Part shown: positions 9,801 through 47,307 of the stretch, piece by piece
How positions within the stretch are numbered: position 1 is the first letter of the stretch
Layout: every line of letters starts with the position of its first letter
The notes under the pieces: generated by a model
What the model was told of the DNA's origin: nothing
The model's input: the letters and a program-made list of their open reading frames with translations, nothing else
Database searches by the model: none
Origin: a candidate division BRC1 bacterium HGW-BRC1-1
GTDB lineage: Bacteria > Sumerlaeota > Sumerlaeia > Sumerlaeales > Sumerlaeaceae
Length of the DNA: 64,000 nucleotides
Direction of reading: 5' to 3'
NCBI GenBank assembly: GCA_002842095.1
Contig: PHCB01000006.1
Location: 3,814 to 67,813 of the forward strand
Position numbers and translations under genes: made by a program

Positions 9801-10078
9801 GGCCTTGATGAGCTTTTAATCCTATTGAGTAGTCCACGTATCTCGATCCACTTCGGTGACGATTTTTTAGCGGCTCCCACATTGCTCGCAGAACCGAAGA
9901 ACACATGAAACAAAACGATCCGGTAACCGCGCCAGAATTGCATCATGGAGTTGGGACGACAGAGTTGAAATTAATACCCCAAGATTTTTCAAATCATTTA
10001 CAGCAGAAATATCGAGTATACGACGATATCCACTACAACCTCCCGAGCGCGAGGTGCCGGATAAACCTCTTTGTAGAA

Positions 10079-10107
10079 ATCTGCGTAAATCTGCGCCATC
10101 TGCGGAT
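10079..10107. promoter_or_regulatory. Three phased direct repeats ATCTGCG-N3-ATCTGCG-N2-ATCTGCG-GAT (family R2), about 300 nt upstream of the GT-C-like gene start on the minus strand
   Basis: Identical triple-heptad arrays occur at 28568–28596 and 33796–33824, with a single heptad at 7073. Confidence 0.45.
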
Positions 10108-10185
10108 GATTTCTGTGGTCCCTCCGGGGCTTGATATTTAGGTGAAGGGTTCCCTTGCCCGCTCTGCGGGAAAAAACAATCTGGG

Positions 10186-10251
10186 GATGAAACGGTATTG
10201 CGTGACCGCAGCGCCCTGCGGCGACCGGCGGGGGCGCCGGTCCCACATCAG
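10186..10251. repeat. R1 REP-like element, copy 3, with the same 5' extension as copy 2 (GATGAAACGGTATTGCGTGACCGCAG…GCGACCGGCGGGGGCGCCGGTCCCACAT)
   Basis: Sequence identity to 7081–7144. Lies just downstream of the map-NUDIX operon end. Confidence 0.7.
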
Positions 10252-10290
10252 AATTGAGGGGGCTTACAGGTTCTCCAGTTCCGCGTCATG

Positions 10291-10863
10291 CTATCTGGCA
10301 GTATAACCGATCACCAATCGTTGCGCCTTGGCCAGGGCGCGCCTTAACGGCGGGTCTAACGCGAGGTCAGCAGTTTCGTCCCAGGTGAACCAGCACATGC
10401 CCAGGTGCTCCTCGGGACGGTGGGCTATTACCGCGCCTGCGGGGGCGACCAGCAGGAATCGCAGATCCAGATGTCGATGCTCCGCCACTTCGCCGCGCGC
10501 GGGGATCACGTGCACGTCCACGTCCAGCGGGCGCGGTGCATCTGGATGCGCTTCCAGCCCGCTGATCCCCGTTTCCTCGTGGGCCTCGCGCATTGCCGCG
10601 GACAGCGCGTCCGCGTCGCCCGGTTCGCCGTGACCGCCCGGTTGAAGCCAGCGGTCCAGTTTGCGATGATGTCCCAGCGCCACACGCAACCCCGCGGCAT
10701 CCACCACGATGGCGCTGGCGGTCAGATGCCCCGCTGTTATTGCGCGATCAAAGGGCGCTGCGTGTGCGTCCACAAATGCGCGAATCTCAGCCAGGTCGGT
10801 CGCTTCCTGCGCGTCCTGGGGCTGATGTGCCGCCAACTGCGCTACCAGTTCCGACCCCATCAT
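10291..10863 (-). CDS. NUDIX hydrolase
   Basis: Nudix box GGHGEPGDADALSAAMREAHEETGI. ORF-track frame extends to 10953, but an ATGATG at 10863 overlaps the map stop (ATGA coupling). Confidence 0.7.
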   Translation of the reverse strand: MMGSELVAQLAAHQPQDAQEATDLAEIRAFVDAHAAPFDRAITAGHLTASAIVVDAAGLRVALGHHRKLDRWLQPGGHGEPGDADALSAAMREAHEETGISGLEAHPDAPRPLDVDVHVIPARGEVAEHRHLDLRFLLVAPAGAVIAHRPEEHLGMCWFTWDETADLALDPPLRRALAKAQRLVIGYTAR

Positions 10864-11618
10864 GCGGTCAGAATCACGGGGCCGTCCTCGGTGATGGCCA
10901 CGGTGTGCTCGAAATGCGCCGACACGCTCTTGTCGGCGGAGATCACCGTCCAACCGTCGGCCAGCGTTTTCGTCTTGCCGGTGCCAATGTTCACCATGGG
11001 TTCGATGGCGATGACGGTGCCCGCCTTCAGGCGCATTCCGGTGTCGGTCTTGCCGTAGTTTAACACTTGCGGCGCTTCGTGCATTTCGCGCCCGATACCG
11101 TGGCCGGTGTACTCGCGCACGATGCCGTATCCGTGGGGATCGATCGCCGCCTGAATGGCGGCCGACAGCGTGCCCAGACGCACATCCGGCTTCAGCACGG
11201 CGATGCCCGCATACAGCGATTCCTGTGTTACCTTGAGCAGTTGCGCAACCTCATCCGACACCTTGCCGATGGGGTAGGTCTTGGCGGAGTCGCTGCACCA
11301 ATCTTCGAGAAACAGTCCGCAGTCGATGCTCACCACGTCGCCCTCGGCCAGGTGACGCTTGCCGGGGAAACCGTGAACGATCTCCTCGTTCACCGAGGTG
11401 CAAAGCGTGGCGGGGAAACCATGGTAGCCGAGAAACGCGGGCTTGGCCCCTGCGTCGACAATCAGCTTGTGGGCGATACGGTCCAGTTCGCCGGTGGTCA
11501 CGCCGGGGGAAATGTGCTTTTCCAGTTCGTTGAAAACCGCCCGCAACAGCTTGCCCGATGCGCGCATCTTATCTATCTCGGCCGCGCTCTTTAACCAGAT
11601 GGTTCCGCTGGTTCCCAT
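10860..11618 (-). CDS. map: Methionine aminopeptidase type I
   Basis: …IWLKSAAEIDKMRASGKLL…, with metal-ligand regions GHGIGREMHE and EHT. ORF-track N-terminal extension (to 11771) looks non-coding. AGGAGA Shine-Dalgarno sequence 8 nt before ATG 11618. Confidence 0.8.
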   Translation of the reverse strand: MGTSGTIWLKSAAEIDKMRASGKLLRAVFNELEKHISPGVTTGELDRIAHKLIVDAGAKPAFLGYHGFPATLCTSVNEEIVHGFPGKRHLAEGDVVSIDCGLFLEDWCSDSAKTYPIGKVSDEVAQLLKVTQESLYAGIAVLKPDVRLGTLSAAIQAAIDPHGYGIVREYTGHGIGREMHEAPQVLNYGKTDTGMRLKAGTVIAIEPMVNIGTGKTKTLADGWTVISADKSVSAHFEHTVAITEDGPVILTA

Positions 11619-26891: not shown

Positions 26892-27449
26892 ATGCCTTCA
26901 CCAGAAGGAACGCTCATATACGAAGAAACGCAGGGCTTTGGGCAGCGCAGCAACTTTGCGATGCTTCTGCTGGTTGCCCTCTTGATACTCACCGCTGTGC
27001 TTGCCCCCCTCATCGTCATCCTCTATGCCCCACCAGAGGTCCGCCACGAAGCGCAGATAAACGGCATTATTGCCAGCCTCATTACCCTCCTCGGCGGGGT
27101 CATCACCTTTGCCAGCTTGTTTTTCATGCGCATAGAAACACAGGTGCGCACACGCGGCCTGTTTGTGCGCCTGCGCCCACTGCCATGGCGTTTCATAGCC
27201 CCGGACGGCATGGTTGCGCATCAAGCCATTACTTATCGGCCCATGCGCGATTATGGAGTTGGCTACCACCGCAGCCTTCGCAAGAAATGGGTTTGCTTCA
27301 ACGCTTCTGGCAATAGAGGCGTGCGGATCGATCTCGCCGACGGTTCCCACGTTATCATCGGCTCACAATCCCCCGACCGCCTCGCGCGGGCCATCTCGCA
27401 ACTGCGCGGCAGCGATGCCGCCCTCCCCAGGGAGAGGAGCGAACCATGA
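26892..27449 (+). CDS. YdbS-like membrane protein (2 TM plus a C-terminal bacterial PH-like domain), paralog 1
   Basis: Two TM helices followed by a roughly 95-aa domain, RIETQVRTRGLFVRL…IIGSQSPDRLARAISQLRGSDAA. Architecture resembles bPH_2/DUF304 proteins. Confidence 0.45.
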   Translation: MPSPEGTLIYEETQGFGQRSNFAMLLLVALLILTAVLAPLIVILYAPPEVRHEAQINGIIASLITLLGGVITFASLFFMRIETQVRTRGLFVRLRPLPWRFIAPDGMVAHQAITYRPMRDYGVGYHRSLRKKWVCFNASGNRGVRIDLADGSHVIIGSQSPDRLARAISQLRGSDAALPRERSEP

Positions 27450-27979
27450 CACCCCCCGAGGGATCCGCGCTCTATGAGGAAAAACAGCATTTCGGCTGGT
27501 CGATAATGGCAATGGCTGTCGTAGGCGTGTTGGTGGTTACCGTAGTTGCCGCCGTGCTTACCATCAAGCGCGCAGGCCAGGGGTCCGGGCCCATGCCAAC
27601 TGGCGTGATTCTCATGTCATTGGCGCCTTTCGGACTCGTTATTGCCGCCACGCTCCTACCGCTTCTGCTTCGCGTCGAAACACAAGTCCGCACTCGGGGC
27701 CTTTACGTGCGCCTGATGCCCTTCCCGTGGCGTCATGTTCCCGCCAGCGAAATAACCACCCACGAAGCGACCTCGTTCCGCCCCCTTCGCGATTGCGGTG
27801 GTTATGGCATGCACAAGAATTTCCTCACCAAGACCACCAGCTATAACGCCCGGGGCAACCGGGGCGTTCGGATCGAGCTGACCGACGGCAAACGCCTGAT
27901 CATCGGCTCACAAACCCCCGACCGCCTCGCGCGGGCCATCTCGCAACTGCGCGGCAGCGATGCCGCCACCGGCCAATAG
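27446..27979 (+). CDS. YdbS-like membrane protein, paralog 2 (tandem duplicate; ATGA overlap with paralog 1)
   Basis: Same architecture as paralog 1. The last approximately 69 nt of the C-terminal coding region are 98% identical at the DNA level to paralog 1 (27353–27421 versus 27897–27965), while the rest has diverged. Confidence 0.45.
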   Translation: MTPPEGSALYEEKQHFGWSIMAMAVVGVLVVTVVAAVLTIKRAGQGSGPMPTGVILMSLAPFGLVIAATLLPLLLRVETQVRTRGLYVRLMPFPWRHVPASEITTHEATSFRPLRDCGGYGMHKNFLTKTTSYNARGNRGVRIELTDGKRLIIGSQTPDRLARAISQLRGSDAATGQ

Positions 27980-28186: not shown

Positions 28187-28323
28187 AAAACTCTCGTGAA
28201 GTAACGACGGGAATTTTACGGCTTAATCCGGTTCGGTTCCATCGCTGGCTTCAGGCCCTGACGCCCTCCTTTTTCATCCCAACTCGGGCGCATGCCAATG
28301 ACTGCGCCTGCCCCCCGACCACC

Positions 28324-28706
28324 TGGGCGGACACACAGGTCCGCCCCTACGATCGGGTCTGGTTTTCCAACAAAGGAATTCGCGTTAATTAGCGTCCATT
28401 AGCGATTCGTTATTCGCCTTGGCGCGGGCTTACGGCACGCATCACGAGAGCGCGGGAATTGGCGCAGGAACGATCGGGGGCAGGAATGCCCCCGCCCCTG
28501 TCAGGAGGAGGACATTCCTTTCCCCCTACCATTCGGTTTGGCGGTGAACGGAACGGTCAAAGAATCCATCTGCGATCATCTGCGCCATCTGCGGATTCAC
28601 TCCGTGGGCACTTGGGCGGACACACAGGTCCGTCCCTAGGATTGGTTTCGGTTTTTCCAACAAAAGAATTCGCGTTTGCGTCCATTTGCGGTTCGTTTGT
28701 TTGCTT
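28324..28706. repeat. Composite intergenic repeat locus A: R4a (28324–28416), R3 hairpin GGGGGCAGGAATGCCCCCGCCCCTGTCA (28476–28503), R2 ATCTGCG heptad triplet (28568–28596) and R4b (28613–28706)
   Basis: R4 is TGGGCGGACACACAGGTCCGCCC (8-bp stem hairpin) …GGTTTTCCAACAAAGGAATTCGCGTT-A-TTAGCGTCCATTAGCG-TTCG. All subelements recur at 32.0–32.25 kb and 33.74–33.94 kb. Confidence 0.75.
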
Positions 28707-28985
28707 CGCGGGCAGAGGAATTACGCAGATTGTCAGCGGGAACCGATTGAATCCTCCATCGGTGGAGCGAAGAAACCCCACGGCGTGTGGTGGCTCCTCA
28801 TCTTTTCTACGCGTCAGGCTTTTAGATCACTTGACTCTACCAATTCTGCCTACGGCGATTTGGCTATTGGGGAAATATGTCGCCACCATTCTTGGTGGTT
28901 GTGCATTTCTTCCCGCAATGAGCGTGGGGGCCGCACCCGCGTTACCCCACCTTTGTGTTCAATCTCATTTTATGGGGAGTCGCGG

Positions 28986-31910
28986 ATGAACAGGATCGTC
29001 TTCTTTTTGGTTGGCGCAATCGCAGCGACGGCCGTTATGACCGCAGCCGCGGCGTCGGTGACGAATGTGCGCGCGAACCAGCGCACGGACGGATCGGCAT
29101 TGGTGGATATTGACTACGATCTGGCGGACGTGACGGCGGTTGCCAGTGTGAGTGTGGAGTTCTCACTCGATGGTGGCACGTCTTACACGGTGGTGCCGTC
29201 CACAACCGCGCTTTCGGGCGATTGCGGCGTAGTGACCTCCAGCGGTTCCAACAAGCGAATCGTCTGGAATGCGGGCGTCGACCAGCCGAGCGTGTACACG
29301 GATCAGTGCCGAGCGCGGGTGAGCGCGTTAAACGCAGGGCAGGTGACGACTATTACCCTCCCGGGCGGCGTGCCCCTGGAGATGGTAGCCATCCCGCCGG
29401 GCAGCTTCCAGATGGGCGCGAACGACGAAAGCATGTGGTCGGGGTGGCCTGAAAGCGAGAAGCCGGTGCATACGGTGACGATCGCCCACGCGTTCCAAAT
29501 GGGCCGGTTCGAGGTGACGCAGAGTCAGTGGCTGGCGGTGATGGGCAGTTGGCCGGATCCGAACTGGCCGCCCACTTCATTATCCGGCGTGGGGGACAAT
29601 TACCCGGTCTATTTTGTGTCGTGGGACCACATCAGTGCTGCCAACGGTTTCCTGAATACGCTGAACGCGCATATTTTCTCGACCGGTCAGGGCCCTGCGA
29701 CGTTCCGGTTGCCATCTGAGGCTGAGTGGGAGTATGCGTGCCGCGCGGGCAGCCAGTCGCGGTTCAGCTTCGGGAACTCGAACTGCACCGATAAAACTGA
29801 CTGCACGACAGGCCGCGATCTGGCGGATTATGCATGGTATTGTGGGTTGGGGACGCCAGCATACAGCACAAAGTCTGTCGGTGGGAAGTTATCCAATGCC
29901 TTCGGTCTGTTCGACATGCATGGCAATGTGTGGGAGTTGTGCGAGGACTGGTATCACTCGTCGTACACGGGAGCGCCGACGGATGGTAGCGCGTGGAACA
30001 GCCCTGCGGGGTCTTACCCGGTGCTACGCGGCGGCAATTGGCTATCAAGTCCGGGGGAGTGCCGCTCGGCCTATCGCAACGCAACCGGCCCGCGCGATCT
30101 CTCCAACGGCTTTGGGTTTCGGTTGTCGCGGACATTGCCTTCGACAGCTGAGGCCTCCTCTCCTGCAGAATCAAACATCTTTGTTTTAGACACGAGGGTT
30201 GTAGGCTCGTTGCAGGTGAGGCTCCTGCCAGCCGCTGCGGTGACGGCAGGCGCGCAATGGCGGCGCACGGCGACTACGACCTGGTTCAGCAGTGACGTCA
30301 CGGAATCCTCCATTCCCATCGGTAACTATCAGGTGGAGTTCAAGGATGTGTCGGATTGGATCACGCCCGCGAACCAGTCTGTCACAATCCAGAACGGAGA
30401 GACGGCGACGGCGACGGCGGAGTACAGCACGAATTACGCTCTGACCTCTGCTGATTTCAACCCCGGAGCCCCTGCTCCGGTACAGCCCGCGTCAATCCTC
30501 GATGTGACATGGTCTGTCAGCGGCACACCTCCGGGAACCATCTGGGCCGAACTATTCTTGTCCAAGACCGGCGGTTTTGATACCTGTCGAGTTGGCGCTA
30601 CGCTTACGAACTCGTCGCGATTCGCCTTCCCTGGTGTTCCAGTGAATCACACTCCGGGCAATCAGGTGGTCAACTATGTTCCCGATGGCGTTTATACCAT
30701 CGTGCCCATGATAAACCGCCCCGACACGGGGGGACCCATAGAGAATAATTACGTTAACAACTGGGCGCCCATCGCCGGAAAACGGGTGCTCATCCGGAAC
30801 AACCAATTTGCAACGTGCGATCTGGCCTGGTCGGGAACTCCCTCGTTCGTGGTTTCCGGCCAGAACGTCAGTGTGTCGGGTACCGTCATCAACCTCAGCG
30901 GCAACACTCCCGCTTACGGCTTCTGGGTTGAAACAATCTACGGCACCTTCTCCGACGAAGGATTGTTCCTTGCGGAAGGCTACATCTCCGGAGGCGAGAA
31001 GGTATCCACGTCGCTGGGCCCCAACGACACGGTGGCCTTCAGCCAATCTGGCATCGCTCCGGCTGGCAAGGACCTCGTGGTGGTGGTCGACTCGACCGAC
31101 ATCATTTCCGAGACCGAAGAACGCAACAACAGTGCTTCTCACCGCGTTTCGACTCCCGTTGGACGTGGCTCGTTGGACCTGACCGTGACGGATGCATCGT
31201 TCTCTGCGGCCCAGCTTGCTCCGACAGAGCTAAGCCCCTTCGGGTCGCTGCAATGGTCCGCCACCATTCGTAATAACAGCACCCAACCCACCGGAGATTT
31301 CTGGGTTGAGCTGTTCCACTCAAATAACGGTGGCATCGGTTCCATGAGATCCGGCATCACCCTCACGCAGTCGGAGAAAGTTTCTCTCGCTGCGTCGGAA
31401 ACCAAGCCGTTTAACTTCAATCAACCCTTCAACCAGATTACCGACGGAATCTATTCGGCGGTGGTGGTTGCCAACCGCAACTCCGTGGGTGTCAATCCCG
31501 GCGACACCAATCCGGCGGACAACAGCTTTGTGCTCCCCGGCCGCGTGGTATTGATCAACTCCACAGCCCCGGTCGCGAACCTTCGCTGGAACGCGGAACC
31601 CGTTGTCACACGAACCGGCAACCTCGTTTCCGTAACAGGTCGGGTGATCAACGATGGTCCCGATGCAACAATCGGTTCCTCATGGGTTGAAGCGTATTAC
31701 GGCACCATGGATGTGGCCGGGCGTTACTCCCCACTAAACGTGGTGGCGGGCGGCGTCCTGGTGCCTCCGCTGGCGGGCGGAGAAGGCTACGATATCGCCA
31801 TCAACGGTGGCGTCCTCAGCGGCAACTGGGTAGTGGGCGTCATTATAGATTCAACCGATCTCGTGCCTGAAACCGACGAAACCGATAACTACACGTATCA
31901 ACCGAATTAA
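28986..31910 (+). CDS. Large secreted protein (974 aa): signal peptide, Ig-like domain, FGE-sulfatase (SUMF1/DUF323) domain, then multiple CARDB-like beta-sandwich repeats
   Basis: ATG at 28986 with GGGGAG Shine-Dalgarno sequence (ORF-track start at 28686 lies in the repeat). FGE signature RLPSEAEWEYACRAG…DMHGNVWELCEDWY…LRGGNW…GFRLSR. C-terminal repeats end in the CARDB-like motifs ETEERNNS and ETDETDNYTYQPN. Confidence 0.7.
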   Translation: MNRIVFFLVGAIAATAVMTAAAASVTNVRANQRTDGSALVDIDYDLADVTAVASVSVEFSLDGGTSYTVVPSTTALSGDCGVVTSSGSNKRIVWNAGVDQPSVYTDQCRARVSALNAGQVTTITLPGGVPLEMVAIPPGSFQMGANDESMWSGWPESEKPVHTVTIAHAFQMGRFEVTQSQWLAVMGSWPDPNWPPTSLSGVGDNYPVYFVSWDHISAANGFLNTLNAHIFSTGQGPATFRLPSEAEWEYACRAGSQSRFSFGNSNCTDKTDCTTGRDLADYAWYCGLGTPAYSTKSVGGKLSNAFGLFDMHGNVWELCEDWYHSSYTGAPTDGSAWNSPAGSYPVLRGGNWLSSPGECRSAYRNATGPRDLSNGFGFRLSRTLPSTAEASSPAESNIFVLDTRVVGSLQVRLLPAAAVTAGAQWRRTATTTWFSSDVTESSIPIGNYQVEFKDVSDWITPANQSVTIQNGETATATAEYSTNYALTSADFNPGAPAPVQPASILDVTWSVSGTPPGTIWAELFLSKTGGFDTCRVGATLTNSSRFAFPGVPVNHTPGNQVVNYVPDGVYTIVPMINRPDTGGPIENNYVNNWAPIAGKRVLIRNNQFATCDLAWSGTPSFVVSGQNVSVSGTVINLSGNTPAYGFWVETIYGTFSDEGLFLAEGYISGGEKVSTSLGPNDTVAFSQSGIAPAGKDLVVVVDSTDIISETEERNNSASHRVSTPVGRGSLDLTVTDASFSAAQLAPTELSPFGSLQWSATIRNNSTQPTGDFWVELFHSNNGGIGSMRSGITLTQSEKVSLAASETKPFNFNQPFNQITDGIYSAVVVANRNSVGVNPGDTNPADNSFVLPGRVVLINSTAPVANLRWNAEPVVTRTGNLVSVTGRVINDGPDATIGSSWVEAYYGTMDVAGRYSPLNVVAGGVLVPPLAGGEGYDIAINGGVLSGNWVVGVIIDSTDLVPETDETDNYTYQPN

Positions 31911-32036
31911 GCTCTGTCCCCACCCTCGGGGGTGGGATTGTGGTTCATGAAAATGGAGTGTTCCGCGCTGGCATGGGCGGAACACTCTTTCTTTTTGCGG
32001 GAAGGATTAATCGCCGCCAATTCAACTGAGCTTACT

Positions 32037-32240
32037 CCGGGGGCGGGAATGCCCCCGCCCCTGTCACCCACATTCGGGTCCCCCAACGAAGTAAAGTCTG
32101 AGCTTGCACACCGGTTGCACACCGGTTGCACACCGGTTGCACACCGGGGACATTGGGCAAACCGCCCCTACGATCGGTTCTGGTTTTCCTATTTTACAGT
32201 TCGCGTTCATCCGCATCAATTAGCGGTTCGTCATTCGCCC
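32037..32240. repeat. Composite repeat locus B: R3 hairpin (32037–32069), four tandem 11-mers TTGCACACCGG (32104–32147) and a degenerate R4c (32152–32240)
   Basis: Direct sequence comparison with locus A. The element runs to within 10 nt of the stop of gene 32251..33657. Confidence 0.75.
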
Positions 32241-32250
32241 AGGCGCGTAC

Positions 32251-33657
32251 TCACCGCGCGCGCATCACGAGATCGCCGACGCTCATGGTGCCGTTGGTTG
32301 CGTCGTAGATGAGGGCGCCTTGGTCGTCGTGCTTGTCGGGGCCGAGGCTGTAGAAGCCCGCGGTGTCCGAGCGCGGGAACGACGCGCTTGTGAACGGGTC
32401 CATCGGCTCGGTGGCGATGTACTTCGGCACGAGATCGCCCGGAGCGGACGGGGCGGCGCCCCCTTCCAGTTTCGCTATACGCTCTGCCAGCGCCACCTCC
32501 GTGAGGTGGAAGTGCGCGGCGGAAACCCTCTCGCGGATGGACGTCTCGAGGAAGTTGGGCGAGGCGAAGGACAGCAGCGCGTCGCGCACCATATCGCCGT
32601 ATGGGCCGGCGTACTTGAACATTTTGATAAAGTTGAACTGCTGCTGTTGGTCGTTGCGTGCCTCAAGCATCTCGGCATACTTGGCGCGCAGCGGGTCGTC
32701 AGGCGCGAGTTGCTGCATCCTCCACTCGGGATAGAGTGTAATGGAGTTGATACTCTGGTCGAACAGGTAGGTCACGGGCTTGGAAAAATCCAAGTCCACC
32801 GGGAATCCCTCGCGCTTGAGCGCGCGCAAGTTGCCCAGCGTGTCGGCAAGGGCGATGTCTTCCAGCATGGGCTCATTAACTTGCGCATCGAGGCGTTCCA
32901 TTTCGGCAAGCGATGCCCGCAGTGCCGCCGTGTCATCGCACTGCGCGGCGATGTCGGAGATGGTGGCAGTGGCCATGCGATTCACGGCGATAGCGATGAG
33001 TTGGGATATCAGCGTGGAGGCGGGGTGCCTTCGCGCGAGCGCCAGAACGGAAGTGGCCGTCGCAAGCCCGCGCGAGGTCTCGCCGTCGAGAGCGTCGAGA
33101 CGCGCGCTGAGCAGGGCGACCTTTGCAGCGGTCTGGTAACCAAGAAACTCTACGGCGCTTATCCCGCCGATGGGCGTGTCGGCGGCACCCGTGTCGTAGT
33201 CGGGCCGGGCCGAAAGCGCAAGTGTTGCGGCAATAAGCTCGGAATCCTGCTTGACGAGAGTTGCAGCAGCAGCGCGATCCGCAGCGGACAGCGGCGGTCC
33301 GTACACCATTTGCGCCAAGATTGTCGTGATCGAAGCCGTATCGCGCCCGTCTGGCGATGCTGCCTCGGGAGTCACGGCAAGGGGTGTAACGTCGCCCGAA
33401 CGATTTCTAAAGGCGTCGCCAAAGGCAGTAAGTGCCACCTGCGTTTCCGGCGAGAGCGGTTCAACCTGCGCCCACGAGGCCGGAACCTGCGGAGGCTTGT
33501 GTGCCCGTTCGATCATCGCGAGCTGGTCTGGCGACATCCTGCTGCGCAGGTAGGACCGCAAGCCGTACGGCACCACGACAAACACCAGCACACCCAGCAC
33601 CACCAAAGTAATGAGACATCCCTTCAACTTGCGCTGCCGCGTCCATGTTCCGGTCAT
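32251..33657 (-). CDS. Hypothetical membrane-anchored protein (N-terminal signal-anchor, alpha-helical extracytoplasmic domain)
   Basis: 468-aa ORF; TM LITLVVLGVLVFVVVPYGL; no recognisable catalytic motif. Its last 7 codons (…DLVMRAR) are encoded by sequence that is also repeated at 28437–28457. Confidence 0.5.
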   Translation of the reverse strand: MTGTWTRQRKLKGCLITLVVLGVLVFVVVPYGLRSYLRSRMSPDQLAMIERAHKPPQVPASWAQVEPLSPETQVALTAFGDAFRNRSGDVTPLAVTPEAASPDGRDTASITTILAQMVYGPPLSAADRAAAATLVKQDSELIAATLALSARPDYDTGAADTPIGGISAVEFLGYQTAAKVALLSARLDALDGETSRGLATATSVLALARRHPASTLISQLIAIAVNRMATATISDIAAQCDDTAALRASLAEMERLDAQVNEPMLEDIALADTLGNLRALKREGFPVDLDFSKPVTYLFDQSINSITLYPEWRMQQLAPDDPLRAKYAEMLEARNDQQQQFNFIKMFKYAGPYGDMVRDALLSFASPNFLETSIRERVSAAHFHLTEVALAERIAKLEGGAAPSAPGDLVPKYIATEPMDPFTSASFPRSDTAGFYSLGPDKHDDQGALIYDATNGTMSVGDLVMRAR

Positions 33658-33741
33658 CTGTGGGTCTCCATTCTGATTTCATCCAAACAGGTGTTAGACG
33701 CAAGTGCGCGGGAAAACGATGACACGCGCTTGAACGATTTC

Positions 33742-33935
33742 GGGGGCAGGAATGCCCCCGCTCCTGTCAGAGTTGCTTGAATGGTCAAAGAATCCATCTG
33801 CGTTCATCTGCGCCATCTGCGGATCGATTTCGTGGCAATAGACGGGCACGCTGGTCCGTATCAAAAATTGATTTGTTGTTTTTCTAATAAATCAATTCGC
33901 GTTTATTCGCGTCCATTAGCGGTCAACAATTCGCG
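33742..33935. repeat. Composite repeat locus C: R3 hairpin (33742–33770), R2 heptad triplet (33796–33824) and R4d (33841–33935)
   Basis: R4d supplies the last 11 codons (VRELLTANGRE*) of gene 33903..35750. Confidence 0.75.
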
Positions 33936-35750
33936 GACCACACCGTTTTCGATGACGTGGGTTACTCCGGGTTTTATCTGCACCCCGCCCTCGGCCTCGA
34001 TGGGGTCGCGCCAGTAGAAGCGCCGGTTCAAATAAAACGGATACGTGGGCGAGACGAACTGCACAACGGCGTCGCGCGGGAGGGTGCGGTTCAGTTCATC
34101 GTATTGGCGGATGAGGTCCAGCCCGAAGGGTTTCGTCTCCAGATAGCTCAGGCGGTCCTCCGCCGTGAGAACCGGGCGATAGCCCCACGCGACGGTCTCG
34201 TAGCCGCCCCACTGGACCTGCTTGCTGCCGTAGGTCCAAGCGAGCGCGGCGGCCACCGCCGCCAGCCCGCCGTAGCGCAGCGTGGGCGACACCTCGCGCC
34301 GTGCACCCAGCCACGCCATGCCAGCGCCCACGGCCACGAACACCGCCGGATAGCACATGGCGAAATATTTGATGGTCTCGCTCTGGCCAGCCGTCCAAAT
34401 GTACACGACCCATTGCACCAAGGCCACCGCACCCAGAGCGCGCAGACGGGCGTCACGCACGGCGAACAGCGCCAGCACCACCGCCGCGTGCAGAACGAAA
34501 CCGGGACTGCGCTCGGCCACGGCGAAATTCAGTTTGTCGGGCACGGCGCGCAGTGCCTCCAGCGCCCCCGCCGGAGAGAACGCGTGGATATCCAATCGTC
34601 CGCCACCACCGCCCGCGCCCGCTGCGGCAACTGCAGCGCTGAAACTTTCATTCATGGGCATCCATTCGCGGAACATCGGAAAAAACGGATTGCCACTACC
34701 CAGCGTGGCGCTTCGCACGGCCCACAGGGCGAACGGTAGACACGCCAGCGCTACGGCCCCTGCGGCCATCTTCCAACCCACACGACGCCGCACCACCGCC
34801 ACCGCAAGCAGCACCAGCCACGGGGCTAATCCATAACCCAGCGCCGTAATTTTCGTGGCCACGGCAAACCCGGTTAGCACCCCCGACAGCATCCACAGGG
34901 CAGCGTTGCGTCGCGCCTCCCCCGCACCAAACCCCGCCTCCACGGCCACCAGCAAACCCGCCGTGGCGAACATGGCCACGGTCAGTTCAGCGCCCGTGTT
35001 GATGGGCACAAACCATACGTTGGCCCCATACGCCGTGGCGCACAGCAGCCACGTCCACGCGCCCGCCACCGCGCCAAACCACCGCCGCGCAAACAGCGCC
35101 GCCACGGAGAAGCACAGAAACCCCTCCAGCGCATACAGCAGCGAGCAATCGATTTCGTCGCCAAGCATCAGCGCGATGGAATACAGCACCGACCCATGCA
35201 GCGCGTAATTGCTGGGGAAAACCTCGGGCCACGCATCCAGCCGCCCCCACCAGATCCACGCCCGCGCGCACGAGAGGTGGTACCAGAGGGAATCCTGCTG
35301 GGCATCGGGCGCCAGCGCCCCCAGCAGCGTGTTTAACGCGGCCGCGGCGCAGAGGAGGCCGATCAGCCACAGAAGCCAGCGCGGCGCGTCAGACGCGGTT
35401 GTCGCGGCCTTCGGGAGCGATGTCTGTGCTTCTTGCCGCTGCGACCGCCACGATTTCCGATCGCCCCACATGCGCCATGCGCCGCCCGCCGCGCAAGCCA
35501 GCACCAGCGCACCAACCCACACCGGATGCCATATCCCGGCCAGCCCCGTAACCACCATCACCGCGCCGAGCAGCCCCAGCCCCAGGACCGCGCAAACCGC
35601 GAGGTCCAGCGCTGGCGACCAAACAAACGGTTTTTCCCCGCGCAGGCGCGCCAACACCTGTCCCCCGGCGCCCACCGCCGCCGCCAGCGCGACGGCGCTT
35701 TTCGCCAGATAAACCAGCACCAGCAGGAAGGTGAGGGCAGCGTTGGTCAT
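33903..35750 (-). CDS. Polytopic membrane protein, putative GT-C-type glycosyltransferase (DUF2029/PMT/ArnT-like)
   Basis: 615 aa; 10 or more TM helices in the N-terminal two-thirds with periplasmic loops rich in W/Y, and a C-terminal soluble domain. No catalytic motif confirmed. Confidence 0.4.
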   Translation of the reverse strand: MTNAALTFLLVLVYLAKSAVALAAAVGAGGQVLARLRGEKPFVWSPALDLAVCAVLGLGLLGAVMVVTGLAGIWHPVWVGALVLACAAGGAWRMWGDRKSWRSQRQEAQTSLPKAATTASDAPRWLLWLIGLLCAAAALNTLLGALAPDAQQDSLWYHLSCARAWIWWGRLDAWPEVFPSNYALHGSVLYSIALMLGDEIDCSLLYALEGFLCFSVAALFARRWFGAVAGAWTWLLCATAYGANVWFVPINTGAELTVAMFATAGLLVAVEAGFGAGEARRNAALWMLSGVLTGFAVATKITALGYGLAPWLVLLAVAVVRRRVGWKMAAGAVALACLPFALWAVRSATLGSGNPFFPMFREWMPMNESFSAAVAAAGAGGGGGRLDIHAFSPAGALEALRAVPDKLNFAVAERSPGFVLHAAVVLALFAVRDARLRALGAVALVQWVVYIWTAGQSETIKYFAMCYPAVFVAVGAGMAWLGARREVSPTLRYGGLAAVAAALAWTYGSKQVQWGGYETVAWGYRPVLTAEDRLSYLETKPFGLDLIRQYDELNRTLPRDAVVQFVSPTYPFYLNRRFYWRDPIEAEGGVQIKPGVTHVIENGVVRELLTANGRE

Positions 35751-38215: not shown

Positions 38216-39982
38216 TTAGAAAAGCTGCCAATCGGTGACGCTGGCTCCGACCGGGGGAACCACGCTGGCCCAGGTGCCACCGGCGCGGACTGCGTCGATG
38301 TCGGCTTCCCAGGGGTTTCCGAAGTTTTGCTGACGAACCACAAAGCCCGACAGGTAGGAGCTGGAATCAGTTTCCGTGCCCTGCTTGGTAACCGTCTGGA
38401 ATGCGGTGGCCGGCTCGGTGGTCGGGAACGGATCGGTCGCTGCGAAGACAAACAGCTTGCTCTCGTCGTCTGCGGCACCGTTGAAGGAGTACTTCACAAC
38501 GATCAGGTAGGTCTGATCGACGTTCAGATCAACACCCACAGGGACCGCAGTGCTGAACAGGAAGAAGCTGTGGCCAAGGCGGTAGGTTGAAGCACTGGTA
38601 CCAGCCATCATGTAAAGCGCACTGCGGGTGAAAGTACCCGATCCCTCACGGAAGCCGGTCAGTTGCGGGTTGCTGGCGCTCACGTTCGCGCCGCCCGTGG
38701 GGACATTCAGCAGAAAGCTCTGGTACACCGAGCCATCGGCAAGGGGTGCGAAGGGTGCCACAACGCCCTGACCGTTTGCAACAGCACCCAACGCCTGGAT
38801 CTTGTTGCCCAGCGACGCTGCGCGACCCAAGCCCGTGAAAGTGAGCGAGGCGGGAAGAACCTGAGCGGCTGTGCCCGACTGGAATTGAACCCAGGGGCCG
38901 TTGCCAACCAGATCGCCAGCGGGATAATCAATTTCGTCATAAAGGAACAGGCCGGCAGGATTGTTCGCCGTGGCAAGAGCCTTGACGTTTTTGTCGGTCG
39001 TGCCGGCGGTGGAAACTACCACGTTGCCCTCGAGCACACCAGCAGCGGCGGCGGTAGCGCGCACGTCGATAGACGTGACGGCTACACTGCCACTGGCAGG
39101 AACCAGAGAGACGGAAGCGCTATAGGTGGGGTCGGCGGTCTTCTTCACTTCGAAGCCGGCGGGAGGTGTGACGACCACATTGCCCGTCAGGTTCGCGCCA
39201 GAAACATCAAAGCTCTTGGCGGCAGAGACGCCCGGAACCGGCCAGACGTTACCGAAGGAGCCGAGATCTGTGGTACTGACCGTCAGAGATGGGGAGGCAG
39301 CGGCACCGGAGGTGATGCTGATGTCGTCGATGCCGACAAACTCATCACTGCCACCAGCATTTGCCGTAATGATACGAATTTGAACCTCTGCCTGATTTTC
39401 CACTGCCACAGGCAATGTGACGCTAACTGGTGTTACCAGGGTTGCCAGGCTGGGCCCTTCGGTCGCATCGGCGACAAAGCCGCCAGCAACATTGGTGAAG
39501 TCGCCCGTACTGCCTATACGATACTGTAAGGCAACCGGCTGGATGGCATTGTCCACAGCGTCATCGATGTCGCGAAGATTATAAGAAATCTGCACGCCTG
39601 TTTTGGCGGTAGTGTTAATGTGGATAACAATAGCCGGAGCATCGGCGGTACCCGAACCCTGCATCGCCACCACGGGATTCGCGATCTCCGCCTCAATTAC
39701 GCCACCCGAAGTGTACGTGCCAGGAGAAGTGTTGTTAGCGATAACGTTCACTGTTCCCTCGAACGCCAGAATCGTTTGCGGGTCTGTGCCCGTGGAGCCC
39801 GTGAGTGCATCACCGCGATACCCCATGATCCCTGGTACGCCCGACCAGTCGTTGTCCACCGTGATCAAGCCCGTGTTCGTCCAGTCCTGCGAAAACGGCA
39901 GGGTCTGGTAGGTGGTGTCGGCCAGAGCCGGGGCGGCGAGGGCGAGGGTCAGCCCTATGGTTGCAATATATTTCTTAAACAT
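38216..39982 (-). CDS. Secreted beta-rich surface protein (signal peptide; Thr/Gly/Ser/Val-rich, likely repetitive beta-sandwich domains)
   Basis: 588 aa; MFKKYIATIGLTLALAAPALA signal peptide; composition typical of S-layer or adhesin-like proteins; no catalytic motif. Confidence 0.5.
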   Translation of the reverse strand: MFKKYIATIGLTLALAAPALADTTYQTLPFSQDWTNTGLITVDNDWSGVPGIMGYRGDALTGSTGTDPQTILAFEGTVNVIANNTSPGTYTSGGVIEAEIANPVVAMQGSGTADAPAIVIHINTTAKTGVQISYNLRDIDDAVDNAIQPVALQYRIGSTGDFTNVAGGFVADATEGPSLATLVTPVSVTLPVAVENQAEVQIRIITANAGGSDEFVGIDDISITSGAAASPSLTVSTTDLGSFGNVWPVPGVSAAKSFDVSGANLTGNVVVTPPAGFEVKKTADPTYSASVSLVPASGSVAVTSIDVRATAAAAGVLEGNVVVSTAGTTDKNVKALATANNPAGLFLYDEIDYPAGDLVGNGPWVQFQSGTAAQVLPASLTFTGLGRAASLGNKIQALGAVANGQGVVAPFAPLADGSVYQSFLLNVPTGGANVSASNPQLTGFREGSGTFTRSALYMMAGTSASTYRLGHSFFLFSTAVPVGVDLNVDQTYLIVVKYSFNGAADDESKLFVFAATDPFPTTEPATAFQTVTKQGTETDSSSYLSGFVVRQQNFGNPWEADIDAVRAGGTWASVVPPVGASVTDWQLF

Positions 39983-42766: not shown

Positions 42767-44245
42767 TTAGTAGTTAAGCCACTCGTTCACGCCGGCCGTG
42801 ACGGCCATGGTGACGGTCGCAGGGGCCGGAGTGGTGTAGCTGTTGGCACCGGCGGGGGAATAAACACGCAGGTACTCCGCCGAGGAGTTGGACCCGTAGA
42901 AGTTTCCGGCAGCGTCAAAGGCGGCGTCGCGGGACGTGGTGCCGGTATAAGTGGCGCCAGCTTCATAGGCCACTGTGACTGTCGGGAACGTGCCGATCTC
43001 CAGCACCTTCATTCCAGCGGACACAGAATACACCAGTTTGGTGCCGTCGGGGCTGATATCCATGCCGCCCTGGGTGGTGGCCGCAAGGCCAACTCCGCCG
43101 GGTAGATTCGTGAAGGAGTTGAAGTCCACCGTCTGAGCAGGGGAGGTTGTGACGTGGATAAGAGCCGGAACCGCAGCGCCATCAGTGCTTCGATTCTGGC
43201 TGATCCACCAGCCGTTGTTTCCCGGCGCGATGGTGCTGTTCATGTTCTGCTGCAGGTTTCCAGCGGCGAAATCGTCGTAGGTGACGGTGGGGGCGGTATT
43301 GTAACCACTCGTCGCCGTGCCGATGGCGTAGCTGTAAAGGCTGCCTTTGCCCTCACCCAGGGTTGCGGCGGTGAGATCAAGGTCTTCATCGAGGGTGGTC
43401 ATCACACGACCACTTCCCGTGCCGGCCACATAAAGTCCACCAATGCTGCCGTGGAGGCCTGTACGCAAGCCGCCTGCGCCACGCACGATCGTCGAATCGA
43501 ACAGTTCCGAGAAGGCATTCGCAGGATTAGCCGCATCCATGATCCAGACGCCCGAGTGGGAATCTGACCAATCGCAGATGAACGGCGCGCCGTCAGGCGC
43601 TACACGAACACGGAAGGGGCTGGAATTGCCCACCCATGCGACGCCACCATTATAGGCGGTGTCCACCTGTCCGGTGATGTCCTGGAAGTCGTTCGACAAA
43701 ATGTAAACGCCATCCGTCATTGCAAGGCGCCCGTCGGCCGTGTTCACCGGCGTGGCGGCAACGCTGCCGGCATTGTTGACCACGTAAATCCGTCCGAAGG
43801 TCGCGTTGGCAGGGTTCTTGTCCACGGCCACACCATAAGGCGTGTAGAAGTTGAGGAACTTGTTGCCAGCGGGCAAGGGCCCCTCATCGCTGATCTTGGT
43901 GACAGCGCCATAGCCACTGGCGGCGGCGGTCACTTCGAAGGAATAGCTGCCGGCGGCCACATTGGCGGAGGCGTCATTCTTGCCGTCCCAAGCGACGGTG
44001 TTCAGACCCTTCAACTGCGACCCTGCGGCGATGGTGCGCACCACGGTGGTGGCGGGCAGCGGGCCCTTCACCTTCACGCTCACGCCGGTATCGGCGTTCT
44101 CGTTCAGGCGATAGCTGATGTTGTAGTTGTTACCACCCGTATTGGTGGCGGAAAGGTGCGCGGCGTAAACGTTTGCGTGACTGCTGGCGGCACTGCAAAG
44201 CAGCCCTGCCACAGCACACGAAATTGCGAAATGTTTGATGCTCAT
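42767..44245 (-). CDS. Secreted protein with an N-terminal FlgD-Ig-like domain followed by beta-propeller-like repeats
   Basis: Signal peptide MSIKHFAISCAVAGLLCSAASSHA. Ig-like domain SYRLNENADTGVSVKVKGPLPATTVVRTIAAGSQLKGLNTVAWDGKNDASANVAAGSYSFEVTA matches the FlgD Ig-like pattern (…G.H.F.WDG.D..G…G.Y.F.V.A). Confidence 0.5.
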   Translation of the reverse strand: MSIKHFAISCAVAGLLCSAASSHANVYAAHLSATNTGGNNYNISYRLNENADTGVSVKVKGPLPATTVVRTIAAGSQLKGLNTVAWDGKNDASANVAAGSYSFEVTAAASGYGAVTKISDEGPLPAGNKFLNFYTPYGVAVDKNPANATFGRIYVVNNAGSVAATPVNTADGRLAMTDGVYILSNDFQDITGQVDTAYNGGVAWVGNSSPFRVRVAPDGAPFICDWSDSHSGVWIMDAANPANAFSELFDSTIVRGAGGLRTGLHGSIGGLYVAGTGSGRVMTTLDEDLDLTAATLGEGKGSLYSYAIGTATSGYNTAPTVTYDDFAAGNLQQNMNSTIAPGNNGWWISQNRSTDGAAVPALIHVTTSPAQTVDFNSFTNLPGGVGLAATTQGGMDISPDGTKLVYSVSAGMKVLEIGTFPTVTVAYEAGATYTGTTSRDAAFDAAGNFYGSNSSAEYLRVYSPAGANSYTTPAPATVTMAVTAGVNEWLNY

Positions 44246-44658
44246 AAAAGCCCTCCAAGCTATAAGATGCAGTTCGATTGGATGCAAATCCCTTTGTGGG
44301 GAATCCTGACGATACCCTAACGTATCCGTTTGAAGAGAATGAAAAAGCCACCCGTCAACTTACGTCACGGCATTGCCAGCGTTTATCCAATGGCAAATTA
44401 TTGAACCATCAAGCAGGGCTGAGTCAACCTGCTTTTGGTCGGGGATTGCATATTTTTCTATTTTCGCGACGGGACGCGTCATTCTGACGGCTTCCTCAAA
44501 CGTGAGTCTGGGGCTACGCGCGGCAATTAGATTGATGGGAACCATGCAAAACGTCCTATGGGGATGCTGTACGGGGCGATAATGCCAGAAGCGGCGGTGG
44601 AGACTTCAGCAGTCCCCTGTCCTCTACAAGTCGACGCCTCGCCCCACTTTTTCTTCAA

Positions 44659-44698
44659 GTTGCGACCGGTGTGCAACCGGTGTGCAACCGGTGTGCAA
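44659..44698. repeat. Tandem 11-mer CCGGTGTGCAA ×3.6, the reverse complement of the TTGCACACCGG array at 32104
   Basis: Direct comparison. Lies in the 650-nt divergent intergenic region between the two FlgD-Ig-like paralogs. Confidence 0.75.
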
Positions 44699-44895: not shown

Positions 44896-46344
44896 ATGAA
44901 AAGATTACTTTTTGCAGCCTTGCTTGCGGGCGGACTTGTATCCGCGGCGCAGGCAGTCCCGTACGCGGGACAGATTCGCGTGAGCAGCTTGAGCGTGGCC
45001 CAGGGTGTCGGGCTAACGATCAACTACCAACTTAATGAAACCGCCGACAGTGTAGGTATCGAAATTCGCAATCTGTCGAACGTCGTTGTGGCGACTTTCA
45101 CCGGAACGGCCGCCCAAGGCGCCAATAGTGTGGCATGGAACGGCACTGCGGATAACGCTGCCGGTGCTGCCGTAACGGCCGGCAACTACCGCGTCCGCAT
45201 CACGGCCAACAAGAACGTTCCGCTGGGCTGGACGGAATTCGCGTCCAACCGCTCGGTGGGTAATTATGGTACGGCAACCATCCTGAACACGATATTCGAT
45301 GGCTATTCGGGCCGCTCCTTCATCCTCTCGCGCAACACAGACAGCCCGGCGTTTGGCTACGTGCTCGGTATCACCTCGTATCTCACGACTACCAACCATG
45401 CCGCAGCAGTCGTGTTTGATTCAGACCTCAGCATCTCCGCCGGCGACGACGGCTTCGCCTCGCGCAAACTGAAGGGCTTCGGCGACGGCGTGGCCATCAC
45501 GAACAACACCGCTTTCTGGGATGCCGTGATTGATCCCGATGATCCCACGCGCGTGTGGGCCACCGGTCAGGGTGGAGTTGGCGCTGGAGCCAATCAGACA
45601 GGACTCATGACCGCCAGCCCGATTTTGTCGGACAACCTTGTGGACGCGGATCCATTCGACCGTGCGGCTGTAATCCTGCCCCGTGGGTTGGAAGTAAAGA
45701 CTATCAGTGGCACCAAATACGCCTTCCTCACGGGTGGCACTGGTATCATCAACCGCGTGGTGATTGATGGCACCAACAACGTGCCGGACGTGGCAGCGGT
45801 GGATATTCTCGGTGTATCGGCAGTGTACTCGCGCGACGTTCGCTTCGATGCAGCTGGCAACCTCTACTACACCACGCGCGACGTCGCCGGTGGTAACATT
45901 TACCGCTGGGATGCAGCACTCGTGGCTTCCGCCGTGGCCGACAGCCTGACGCCTGCCAACGCCTCGTGGACCATCACGGGCACCGCTACTGCTGCCAACA
46001 TGATGAACGCTGCCATCGCTCCCAACGGCGACGTTTATACGCTGGCGGTTACGGGCACCGAGCGCGGTATCTATCTCGTTGGCAATATCTCCGCGCCGAC
46101 GCTGACCAAAACTCTGGCCCTGGCTGACCGCGTGGTCGATTACGTGGCCATCCCCTGGCAGCCCAGCACCGCCGGTGGACGCATTGCCGTGGATATCGCG
46201 GGCAACGTGTATGCCACGGATAACTCCGTGGAGCAGGTGCGTGCCTTCAGCCCCGGTGGCAACACCTCCCAGATTGTGGTTGCTCCCTCCAGCGAAACCT
46301 TCGCCGTGACGGCCGCCAACGTATCGGGTTGGGGCCTGTACTGA
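44896..46344 (+). CDS. Secreted protein with an N-terminal FlgD-Ig-like domain plus beta-propeller-like repeats (divergent paralog of 42767..44245)
   Basis: Signal peptide MKRLLFAALLAGGLVSAAQA; INYQLNETADSVGIEIRNLSNVVVATFTGTAAQGANSVAWNGTADNAAGAAVTAGNYRVRITA; shares …RFDAAGNLYYT… style repeats with the paralog. Confidence 0.5.
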   Translation: MKRLLFAALLAGGLVSAAQAVPYAGQIRVSSLSVAQGVGLTINYQLNETADSVGIEIRNLSNVVVATFTGTAAQGANSVAWNGTADNAAGAAVTAGNYRVRITANKNVPLGWTEFASNRSVGNYGTATILNTIFDGYSGRSFILSRNTDSPAFGYVLGITSYLTTTNHAAAVVFDSDLSISAGDDGFASRKLKGFGDGVAITNNTAFWDAVIDPDDPTRVWATGQGGVGAGANQTGLMTASPILSDNLVDADPFDRAAVILPRGLEVKTISGTKYAFLTGGTGIINRVVIDGTNNVPDVAAVDILGVSAVYSRDVRFDAAGNLYYTTRDVAGGNIYRWDAALVASAVADSLTPANASWTITGTATAANMMNAAIAPNGDVYTLAVTGTERGIYLVGNISAPTLTKTLALADRVVDYVAIPWQPSTAGGRIAVDIAGNVYATDNSVEQVRAFSPGGNTSQIVVAPSSETFAVTAANVSGWGLY

Positions 46345-46637: not shown

Positions 46638-47307
46638 TTATTGCTTCGCGGCGTCTTCCACACCCGTAAGGGATATTTGCGCTTTACGCATGAGACCACT
46701 GTACTCCTGCGCCGTGCGCGCCTGAGTCGCCAGTTCCACGTAATGGGTGAACTCGTCGAGATTATCGAGAACCACGCTTTTGGGGGAGTCGTCCTGGGAG
46801 GTGTCGGCCTCGATGCGTCCACGCAGTTGACCGGCCTGGTCTAACATTACGGCGGCTTTGTCGGCGGGCAGTTTCACGTCGTTGATAAGATCGAGATCAC
46901 GCAGGGTGGTGCGGATTTGGTCGGCGCCCGTGCGGGTGATGACAGCCGCCGACTTTTCGGTTTCAGCGGGTGCTGTGCGGATCGATGCCACGGCCGATGT
47001 GGGGATATCGGTGATGACCAGGGGCGGGGGTGTGGGGATGTCACCGGGGGGGGCGGCGGGGGGGGGGGGGGGTGCCGACGGGGGTGTCGGAGGGTGGCGG
47101 GAGGGTTGGGACGACGGGGGTGGCTACGATGTCGAGGGTTTCGGTGCCGGTGGCTTGGAGTTGTCCGGTGGCGTCGCGGGCGGGTTGTTCAACCGCGGGC
47201 GGGTTGGCGGCATCTTTGGGGGCGGAAGAACCGCATCCGGACAGGAGCAGGGCGCTGGTGCCACAGGCAAGAAGCCCAAGGGCGGTGCGGCGGAGATAAA
47301 GATTCAT
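46638..47307 (-). pseudogene. Lipoprotein with a Pro-rich linker and C-terminal domain, split into two ORFs by a frameshift at a G15/C15 homopolymer
   Basis: ORF 47041..47307 is MNLYLRRTALGLLACGTSALLLSGC (lipobox) …PPPPRRPPR*. ORF 46638..46991 (other frame) remains open and Pro-rich back through the homopolymer at 47058–47072, then gives a folded-looking C-terminal domain. Confidence 0.5.
47058..47072. repeat. G15 homopolymer (preceded by G8 at 47046–47053) inside the lipoprotein coding region
   Basis: Counted directly in the sequence. Confidence 0.8.

Follow-up and report, generated by a model that had tools for sequence, protein, structure and literature searches.

A predicted secreted Sumerlaeaceae protein combines an FGE-like domain lacking the complete copper site with a C-terminal module largely restricted to Candidatus Sumerlaeota

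We analyzed a 64,000-nucleotide (nt) stretch of contig PHCB01000006.1 (positions 3,814 to 67,813; assembly GCA_002842095.1) from the candidate division BRC1 bacterium HGW-BRC1-1, a member of the Sumerlaeaceae. This whole stretch is referred to as the window, and all coordinates count from its first nucleotide. Our subject is a gene at 28986–31910, whose 974-residue product carries a domain of the formylglycine-generating enzyme (FGE)-sulfatase type, with a C-type-lectin-like (CLec) fold, together with CARDB-like beta-sandwiches. We propose that the product is a secreted protein made of a head, a spacer and a tail, in which the head would bind a ligand, the tail would serve in display, anchoring or sorting, and heads would be exchanged by recombination; it would be neither a sulfatase maturase nor a target of a diversity-generating retroelement (DGR). 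To this explanation as a whole we assign a probability of about 60%.

Results

Domain organization of the 974-residue protein

The open reading frame (ORF) runs on the plus strand from an ATG at 28986 to a stop codon ending at 31910, as the preliminary description of this DNA had it, and it is a real gene that is stable across assemblies. A GGAG lies 6 nt 5′ of the ATG, the composition is of the coding type (GC3 > GC2), and public pipelines call an identical protein on seven public contigs. Two assemblies, ENA ERZ27239240 and JGI 3300038334, match the window at 100% identity over 12 kb around the gene, while ERZ27239242 matches at 100% over two contigs broken at 28473/28474; at the assembly level, the gene is 100% identical in nucleotide sequence in all three. 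The SecY protein encoded in the window is 73% identical to that of Ca. Sumerlaea chitinivorans.

A hydrophobicity scan of the protein found a single hydrophobic segment, residues 1–26, with no lipobox cysteine and no further transmembrane segment. This is consistent with the signal peptide proposed earlier, which we place at residues 1–24 (MNRIVFFLVGAIAATAVMTAAAAS; 28986–29057) and from whose first residue the head homologue P0010 aligns. It is followed by an Ig-like beta-sandwich at about residues 25–118 (29058–29339), which has no Pfam match and is common to other proteins with a signal peptide, an Ig-like domain and an FGE-like domain (P0010, P0016, P0051 and P0089; 43–53% identity). This three-part head is a common cassette in other phyla at the same level of identity. 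Next comes the FGE-sulfatase domain, residues 132–384 (29379–30137), as delimited by its relatives in the Protein Data Bank (PDB) and by a Pfam PF03781 match over residues 132–380 (E 2.8e-47). The domain had been described as N-terminal; instead, the Ig-like sandwich precedes it.

Behind the head lies a spacer beta-sandwich with a 'GAQW...GW..P' motif (residues 393–483; 30162–30434), a repeat that also occurs before the tail in relatives. The tail itself, residues 484–974 (30435–31907), consists of four CARDB-like sandwiches in the order A-B-A′-B′, namely A (30435–30800), B (30801–31154), A′ (31155–31562) and B′ (31563–31907), all on the plus strand. The two halves are a duplicated pair, as judged by an hhalign comparison of one half with the other (probability 100%, E 1.8e-45), and domains B and B′ each end in an acidic motif, DSTDxxxETxExxN. 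The tail as a whole is acidic and rich in Ser/Thr and Asn. CARDB Pfam PF07705 matches in two stretches at 32.8 bits against a gathering threshold of 22.7, and the CARDB-type beta-sandwich fold was confirmed, with a tail model of predicted template modelling score (pTM) 0.70. Foldseek comparison of this model with the PDB returned generic tandem-Ig and macroglobulin matches only, at TM <0.2. A fusion of an FGE domain to many CARDB modules had been suggested: both kinds of domain are present, but the CARDB-like count is four, arising from the duplicated pair, and the spacer sandwich is unrelated to them.

Two hairpins lie 3′ of the stop codon (31913–31995, plus strand). The second, at 31954–31990, is a likely intrinsic terminator because a U-run follows it, and the post-stop stretch is conserved in two related contigs, L001 and L003, up to 31995/31996.

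The tail defines a family almost confined to Candidatus Sumerlaeota

Relatives of the C-terminal part are rare. A word-index search with residues 385–974 gave only 8 good matches in 5.8 billion clusters, and when 1.84 billion cluster representatives were searched exhaustively with a profile, 72 passed E<1e-30 and about 30 of them carried the full module at E<1e-130. Residues 484–974 align end to end with P0121 and P0123–P0128. The A-B-A′-B′ module closes with ...DSTDxxxETDExxNY within about 10 residues of the C-terminus, and in all close members it ends 0–8 residues from it; in 16 of about 33 close members, 1–6 copies of the GAQW spacer sandwich immediately precede the tail.

Among GTDB species representatives, 13 of 14 tail loci are in Candidatus Sumerlaeota metagenome-assembled genomes (MAGs), and the remaining one, in a Thermoanaerobaculia MAG, matches only weakly and over part of the module. 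Ten of these loci are paralogues in one Sumerlaeota MAG; they range from 783 to 3325 residues and all end in ...DSTDxVxETDETDNYxYSxLxx. The heads joined to the tail are diverse: among 35 members we counted Glug (7), Peptidase_S8 subtilase (4) and fn3 (3) domains, along with LVIVD, Golvesin_C, BNR, Peptidase_C10, beta-helix and Kelch (beta-propeller) heads. The 974-residue protein is the only one of the 35 with an FGE-sulfatase head.

A CARDB Pfam match is present in all 35 members, and no Pfam or NCBIfam model covers the whole A-B-A′-B′ unit. The type IX secretion system (T9SS) C-terminal domain (CTD) models TIGR04183 and TIGR04131 gave no match at E<=1 in the NCBIfam search. The words CARDB, S-layer and adhesin are absent from the one Sumerlaeota genomics paper searched for them (PMC8092238). 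Judged from sequence comparison, the tail is an undescribed, lineage-specific module that is almost confined to Candidatus Sumerlaeota.

A further contig, L004, which is probably from the same genome as the window (see below), carries a probable paralogue at 8091–11566, in which a beta-propeller-like head and the GAQW spacer precede the same tail (49% identity). Two overlapping ORFs (8091–10088 and 10001–11566) share its coding sequence between them, which suggests a frameshift or a pseudogene. A similar arrangement is seen in L003, where a Golvesin_C ORF (1–2856) overlaps the tail ORF.

A different head at the syntenic locus

To either side of the 974-residue gene, the contig L001, from a related population, is colinear with the window at 76–89% nucleotide identity, reaching 89% across the ribosomal operon, EF-Tu and Band_7. 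At the same position it encodes P0121, whose tail is 84% identical in nucleotides and 85% in amino acids and whose terminator is also shared. The head of P0121 is another one, composed of a different signal peptide and an Ice_binding beta-solenoid (PF11999, E 3.2e-51). In a blastn comparison the segment 28175–30434 of the plus strand, with the upstream region, signal peptide and head, has no counterpart in L001, and identity switches on within a few bases at about 30435, that is, at residue 484, the first of domain A. At the level of sequence, the two contigs show one clear head replacement at a syntenic locus.

The window also differs from L001 by a second DUF6141 copy and by a 1.95-kb insert at 31996–33947. 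The DUF6141-like membrane-protein paralogues stand in tandem (26892–27449 and 27446–27979), and L001 has one. In assembly ERZ27239239 (L145), recombination inside a 114-nt stretch where they are 87% identical has reduced the two copies to one, so copy number varies within the population. The insert holds a 468-residue gene on the minus strand (32251–33657), whose product has a transmembrane segment near its N-terminus and matches nothing in Pfam or NCBIfam, and the insert is bracketed by direct hairpin/array copies (32038–32261 and 33740–33921) of the repeats described below. Upstream of the 974-residue gene, at 28420–28453, is a relic of about 30 nt that resembles the 3′ end of the 468-residue gene ('LVMRA').

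The FGE-like domain lacks the bis-cysteine copper site

Aerobic FGEs bind Cu(I) through two cysteines. In an alignment to the Thermomonospora curvata enzyme (T. curvata; PDB 6s07), the copper motif GGSFLCHESYC falls on GGNWLSSPGEC of the 974-residue protein. The positions of the two cysteines span 30045–30062 on the plus strand. The first Cu(I)-binding cysteine, Cys269 in T. curvata, is replaced by Ser354 (TCA, 30045–30047), and the second, Cys274, is kept as Cys359 (TGC, 30060–30062). The FGE bis-cysteine site is broken because of this replacement; in addition, T. curvata Ser266 and Tyr273 align with Asn and Glu. Among the 120 homologues listed, no alignment segment spanning both sites had the Cys/Cys pair. 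The residues aligned to 354 and 359 were (S,C) in 38, (N,C) in 32 and (D,C) in 24, with N/A also found, and the position of the first FGE cysteine was highly variable.

The closest solved relatives point the same way. A PDB sequence search placed PvdO first (E 2.7e-26 over residues 132–384) and TvpA second (E 6.7e-17), with true FGEs at about 1e-11. NCBIfam scores fell far below the equivalog cutoffs for PvdO (NF051459; 131.7 bits against 500), GldK/PorK (TIGR03525; 81.3 against 350) and EgtB (TIGR03440; 52.2 against 360), and those for OvoA and SenA were tiny. No CxPxR sulfatase signature occurs in the six frames of the window, and no Sulfatase Pfam match was found among the neighbors scanned in it. 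The domain is thus predicted not to be a formylglycine-generating enzyme, its copper site being incomplete. The earlier proposal of a surface binding protein rather than a maturase gains from the signal peptide, Ser354, the homologues without a Cys/Cys pair, the PvdO and TvpA relatives and the missing sulfatase signature; the set of catalytic and copper residues that mark a true FGE is not retained.

Search for a diversity-generating retroelement

An FGE-sulfatase domain forms the scaffold of 19% of DGR targets, and cases are documented in which target and reverse transcriptase lie more than 100 kb apart (PMC5758913). The preliminary description had raised a DGR as a lead while seeing no reverse transcriptase or template repeat in the window. 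The latter observation holds up. Pfam scans of the 30 larger gene-like ORFs in the window found no reverse transcriptase or recombinase, a six-frame scan of it found no YxDD preceded by a DGR-type SQ motif, and by blastn at word size 7 no segment of the gene recurs elsewhere in the 64 kb. A pattern in which each base of 30030–30125 may be itself or A matches only the gene itself in the window. The stretch equivalent to a variable repeat (VR) corresponds to residues ~346–381 of 974 (30021–30128), an internal position 590 residues before the C-terminus, and just downstream of it there is no GC-rich initiation of mutagenic homing (IMH) element and no tight hairpin. A collection-wide search with the A-tolerant template pattern returned 2802 matches in fetched loci, all at least 90% A; it is evidence neither way because poly-A runs satisfy the pattern. 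With neither reverse transcriptase nor template repeat in 64 kb, an internal VR-equivalent and a gene that is invariant across assemblies, the lead is not supported.

Dispersed repeats around the gene

The 811 nt upstream of the gene were described as consisting almost entirely of repeats, including a heptad array. We find that blocks repeated in the window (28320–28440, 28474–28504, 28555–28596 and 28609–28710) cover about 290 of the 811 nt, or ~36%, that 28711–28985 is unique within the window, and that the array, CCATCTGCG at 28566–28593, has a 9–10-nt period. Comparison within the window shows the repeats to be mosaics assembled from short blocks of three types: one hairpin with a GNRA loop, a second hairpin, and 9–11-nt tandem arrays of CCATCTGCG or TTGCACACCGG. 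The second hairpin, GGGCGGAC-N6-GTCCGCCC, carries a ~70-nt tail and is present in the upstream cluster (28320–28710, plus strand) in two copies with the loop ACACAG (28320–28440 and 28609–28710); the GNRA-loop hairpin, GGGGGCA-GGAA-TGCCCCC, lies at 28476–28503, and the 9–10-nt array of CCATCTGCG at 28555–28596. It is exactly at a hairpin that the ERZ27239242 assembly breaks.

The elements recur downstream on the plus strand. One set, at 32038–32261, holds a hairpin (32039–32066), four units of TTGCACACCGG (32104–32147) and a 100-nt element (32162–32261); another, at 33740–33921, holds a hairpin (33742–33769), a CCATCTGCG array (33783–33824) and an element fragment (33894–33921). All three hairpin copies of the window sit at the locus of the 974-residue gene. 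The 11-nt TTGCACACCGG array, about one helical turn per unit, occurs in reverse at 44661–44698 with 3.5 units as against four at 32104–32147, and related intergenic arrays of 8–10 nt occur at 10077, 28377, 33794, 35846, 37839, 37886, 38077, 42132, 51134, 60716 and 62542. It also recurs at 100% identity in L004 (15321–15366), adjoining the same GGGGGCAGGAATGCCCCC hairpin. The JGI sample that yielded L004 also yielded a contig 100% identical to the window, and the tetranucleotide correlation of L004 with the window (0.974) is close to that of the two window halves with each other (0.977); this shared sample and signature make it probable that L004 belongs to the same genome. We rejected conservation of the elements across divergent genomes, the L004 copies being probably of the same genome.

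No Rfam family matched in a scan of the window. A metagenome scan for the hairpin element gave 0 matches in a collection that evidently does not include the sample of L004, which has the element. Altogether the repeats look like dispersed intergenic elements of the repetitive extragenic palindromic (REP) type, and are neither a DGR template nor specific to the 974-residue gene.

Other genes of the window

Four ORFs of coding-type composition have no Pfam or NCBIfam match: those of 1235 residues (56381–60088, plus), 724 residues (7228–9402, minus), 588 residues (38216–39982, minus) and 615 residues (33903–35750, minus). The last encodes a polytopic membrane protein that is kept beside the equivalent of the 974-residue gene in L001; it has no similarity to the TMEM260/PMT-like glycosyltransferase seen in L004, and that assignment was rejected. 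A small lipoprotein-like ORF (47041–47307, minus; MNLYLRRTALGLLACGTSALLLSGCGSS...) runs into about 20 C on the coding strand, within a G/C tract at ~47046–47072, and continues in other frames (46874–47044 and 46638–46991). Slipped-strand phase variation could account for this arrangement, as could an error of assembly. Two divergent genes for secreted proteins of about 500 residues (42767–44287, minus; 44896–46344, plus), each with an N-terminal FlgD_ig and no other recognized domain, flank the intergenic region with the reversed 11-nt array. A 176-residue ORF (28459–28989, plus), which public pipelines call in truncated form at 167 (L141) or 171 residues (L142), is probably spurious, since most of it is composed of the intergenic repeats ('GAGMPPPL', 'ICDHLRHLRI').

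Discussion

We interpret the 974-residue protein as a Sec-exported, extracellular or cell-surface protein of the Sumerlaeaceae in which a passenger and a spacer would precede a conserved tail. The passenger, residues 25–384, would combine the Ig-like sandwich with a CLec domain that is non-catalytic, or at least not an FGE, and it most likely acts as a ligand-binding head in the manner of TvpA-type CLec domains. By analogy, the most likely role of the tail is to display, anchor or sort a variety of passengers at the envelope, and divalent cations are perhaps bound at its acidic DSTD..ET.E..N motifs. Heads would be exchanged by recombination at the head/tail boundary, and the cause may be recombination between paralogous tails or between flanking repeats; a role of these repeats as the upstream homology is speculation. 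A more specific version of this proposal is that the A-B-A′-B′ tail is an undescribed Sumerlaeota-specific display or sorting module, an analogue of CWB2, SLH (S-layer homology) and T9SS CTD modules, with heads shuffled through paralogous tails and repeats and giving strain-level variation at a fixed locus by the ribosomal protein operon. By analogy this could be so, but we put it forward only tentatively.

Several observations weigh against our interpretation. The head swap comes from one syntenic relative, L001. No conserved partner gene of a sortase-like or secretion type was found beside the family members, where the common neighbors are prepilin-type proteins only, and neither a C-terminal transmembrane segment nor a sorting motif of known type was found in the tail by NCBIfam and hydrophobicity scans. 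Its anchoring or secretion role is read, by analogy, from its terminal position, the number of paralogues and the diversity of heads. An enzymatic activity with a different specificity is still conceivable for the FGE-like domain; PvdO, its closest solved relative, is annotated as a dehydrogenase. Finally, a full-length single-sequence AF2 model reached a predicted local distance difference test (pLDDT) score of only 31, too low for use.

The tail might instead not anchor or sort anything, and be a self-assembling (S-layer-like) or carbohydrate-binding scaffold, so that the family would be adhesins and enzymes with a common stalk. Its acidic, Ser/Thr- and Asn-rich composition would suit such a role, and the pTM of the tail model suggests that its four domains are fixed relative to one another. 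As a rule, however, stalks lie inside proteins and vary in copy number, and the strict terminal position of this module, 0–8 residues from the end of every close member, is more typical of sorting or anchoring. We regard a scaffold as unlikely, while giving it real weight. Somewhat further down we would place an extracellular enzyme, in which the FGE-like domain performs another redox or modification reaction, PvdO- or EgtB-like, on an external substrate and the tail tethers or stabilizes it. PvdO is the closest relative both among solved structures and in NCBIfam, NCBI names close homologues 'SUMF1/EgtB/PvdO family nonheme iron enzyme', and S8 and C10 peptidases and BNR domains show that other heads on the same tail are enzymatic. 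Even so, the PvdO score of 131.7 bits is far under 500, and EgtB, OvoA and SenA score tiny values. The protein has no DinB or iron-binding partner domain, the neighbors scanned include no pyoverdine or ergothioneine gene, and the only conserved cysteine pattern is that of the non-catalytic TvpA.

That the protein is a remote DGR target, in which a template repeat encoded at a distance of over 30 kb would serve to rewrite the C-terminal part of its FGE/CLec domain (~346–381), seems to us very improbable. The frequent use of this scaffold, the second rank of TvpA and the variability at the first FGE cysteine among homologues all speak for it, and the small chance we leave it is owed to the documented targets more than 100 kb from their reverse transcriptase (PMC5758913). 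Against it stand the 30 ORFs and six frames scanned without a reverse transcriptase or its motif, the lack of a repeat of any gene part in 64 kb, the 590 residues that follow the region, the missing IMH or tight hairpin just downstream, and the 100% identity of the gene in ERZ27239240, ERZ27239242 and JGI 3300038334. Hardly credible at all is a genuine formylglycine-generating enzyme that matures sulfatases: the strong Pfam FGE-sulfatase match is offset by Ser354 at the first copper cysteine, by Asn and Glu at the Ser266 and Tyr273 equivalents, by a secreted, multi-domain architecture, by the absence of the CxPxR signature from 64 kb, and by E-values of only about 1e-11 to true FGEs.

Several known systems resemble parts of the secreted head-spacer-tail protein that we favor. 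TvpA of Treponema denticola (PDB 2y3c) has the same FGE-sulfatase fold and the same 'GGSW......C' pattern, which lacks the first of the two FGE cysteines but retains the other, and like other non-catalytic FGE-type CLec surface proteins it is exported and putatively binds a ligand. It is, however, a small lipoprotein with a C-terminal VR diversified by a DGR, whereas the domain studied here is internal, is followed by a 590-residue tail, is invariant across assemblies and has no reverse transcriptase or template repeat in the window. PvdO (PDB 5hha) is likewise an exported FGE fold without the FGE cysteine pair, but it is a single-domain periplasmic protein encoded in pyoverdine clusters, none of which was found near the gene among the neighbors scanned. 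Aerobic FGEs such as human SUMF1 and the T. curvata enzyme share the fold and the Pfam family, in contrast to which the 974-residue protein has Ser354/Cys359, is secreted and multi-domain, and has no sulfatase in the window.

The nearest parallels to the tail family lie in organization rather than in sequence. The Cwp proteins of Clostridioides difficile, with their three CWB2 repeats, the SLH proteins and T9SS CTD cargo are families with a conserved anchor and a variable passenger. As in the tail family, each has many paralogues per genome, and one terminal module is joined to varied heads, proteases and adhesin repeats among them. In sequence these families are unrelated to the tail, which greatly exceeds a sorting signal in size and whose anchoring role is assumed by analogy. 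Compared with CARDB domains of PF07705, such as those of Pyrococcus PF1109 (PDB 3idu/2kl6) and Methanosarcina MA_4588 (2l0d), the tail differs in being a fixed C-terminal unit of about 490 residues in A-B-A′-B′ order. The VARTIG proteins of Thermococcales are also secreted CARDB/Ig-like proteins whose one end differs from strain to strain through replacement by recombination, with no integrase close to the locus, but they are archaeal, vary in the C-terminal Ig domain and belong to a polymorphic-toxin-like locus (PMC8416519). At the locus described here it is the N-terminal head that varies, in a single gene beside the ribosomal operon.

The 974-residue protein is of a familiar kind, in a combination that is new. 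Secreted multi-domain proteins very commonly carry FGE-like domains, and the FGE and DGR idea adds nothing new. More may be gained from the tail. Sumerlaeota are uncultured, and a terminal module found on at least 10 secreted proteins per genome, among them proteases, adhesin-like and lectin-like proteins, would offer a handle on how these bacteria display proteins. It could also serve as a marker for finding the Sumerlaeota exoproteome in metagenomes, and the syntenic head swap would be a clean natural example of domain-cassette exchange.

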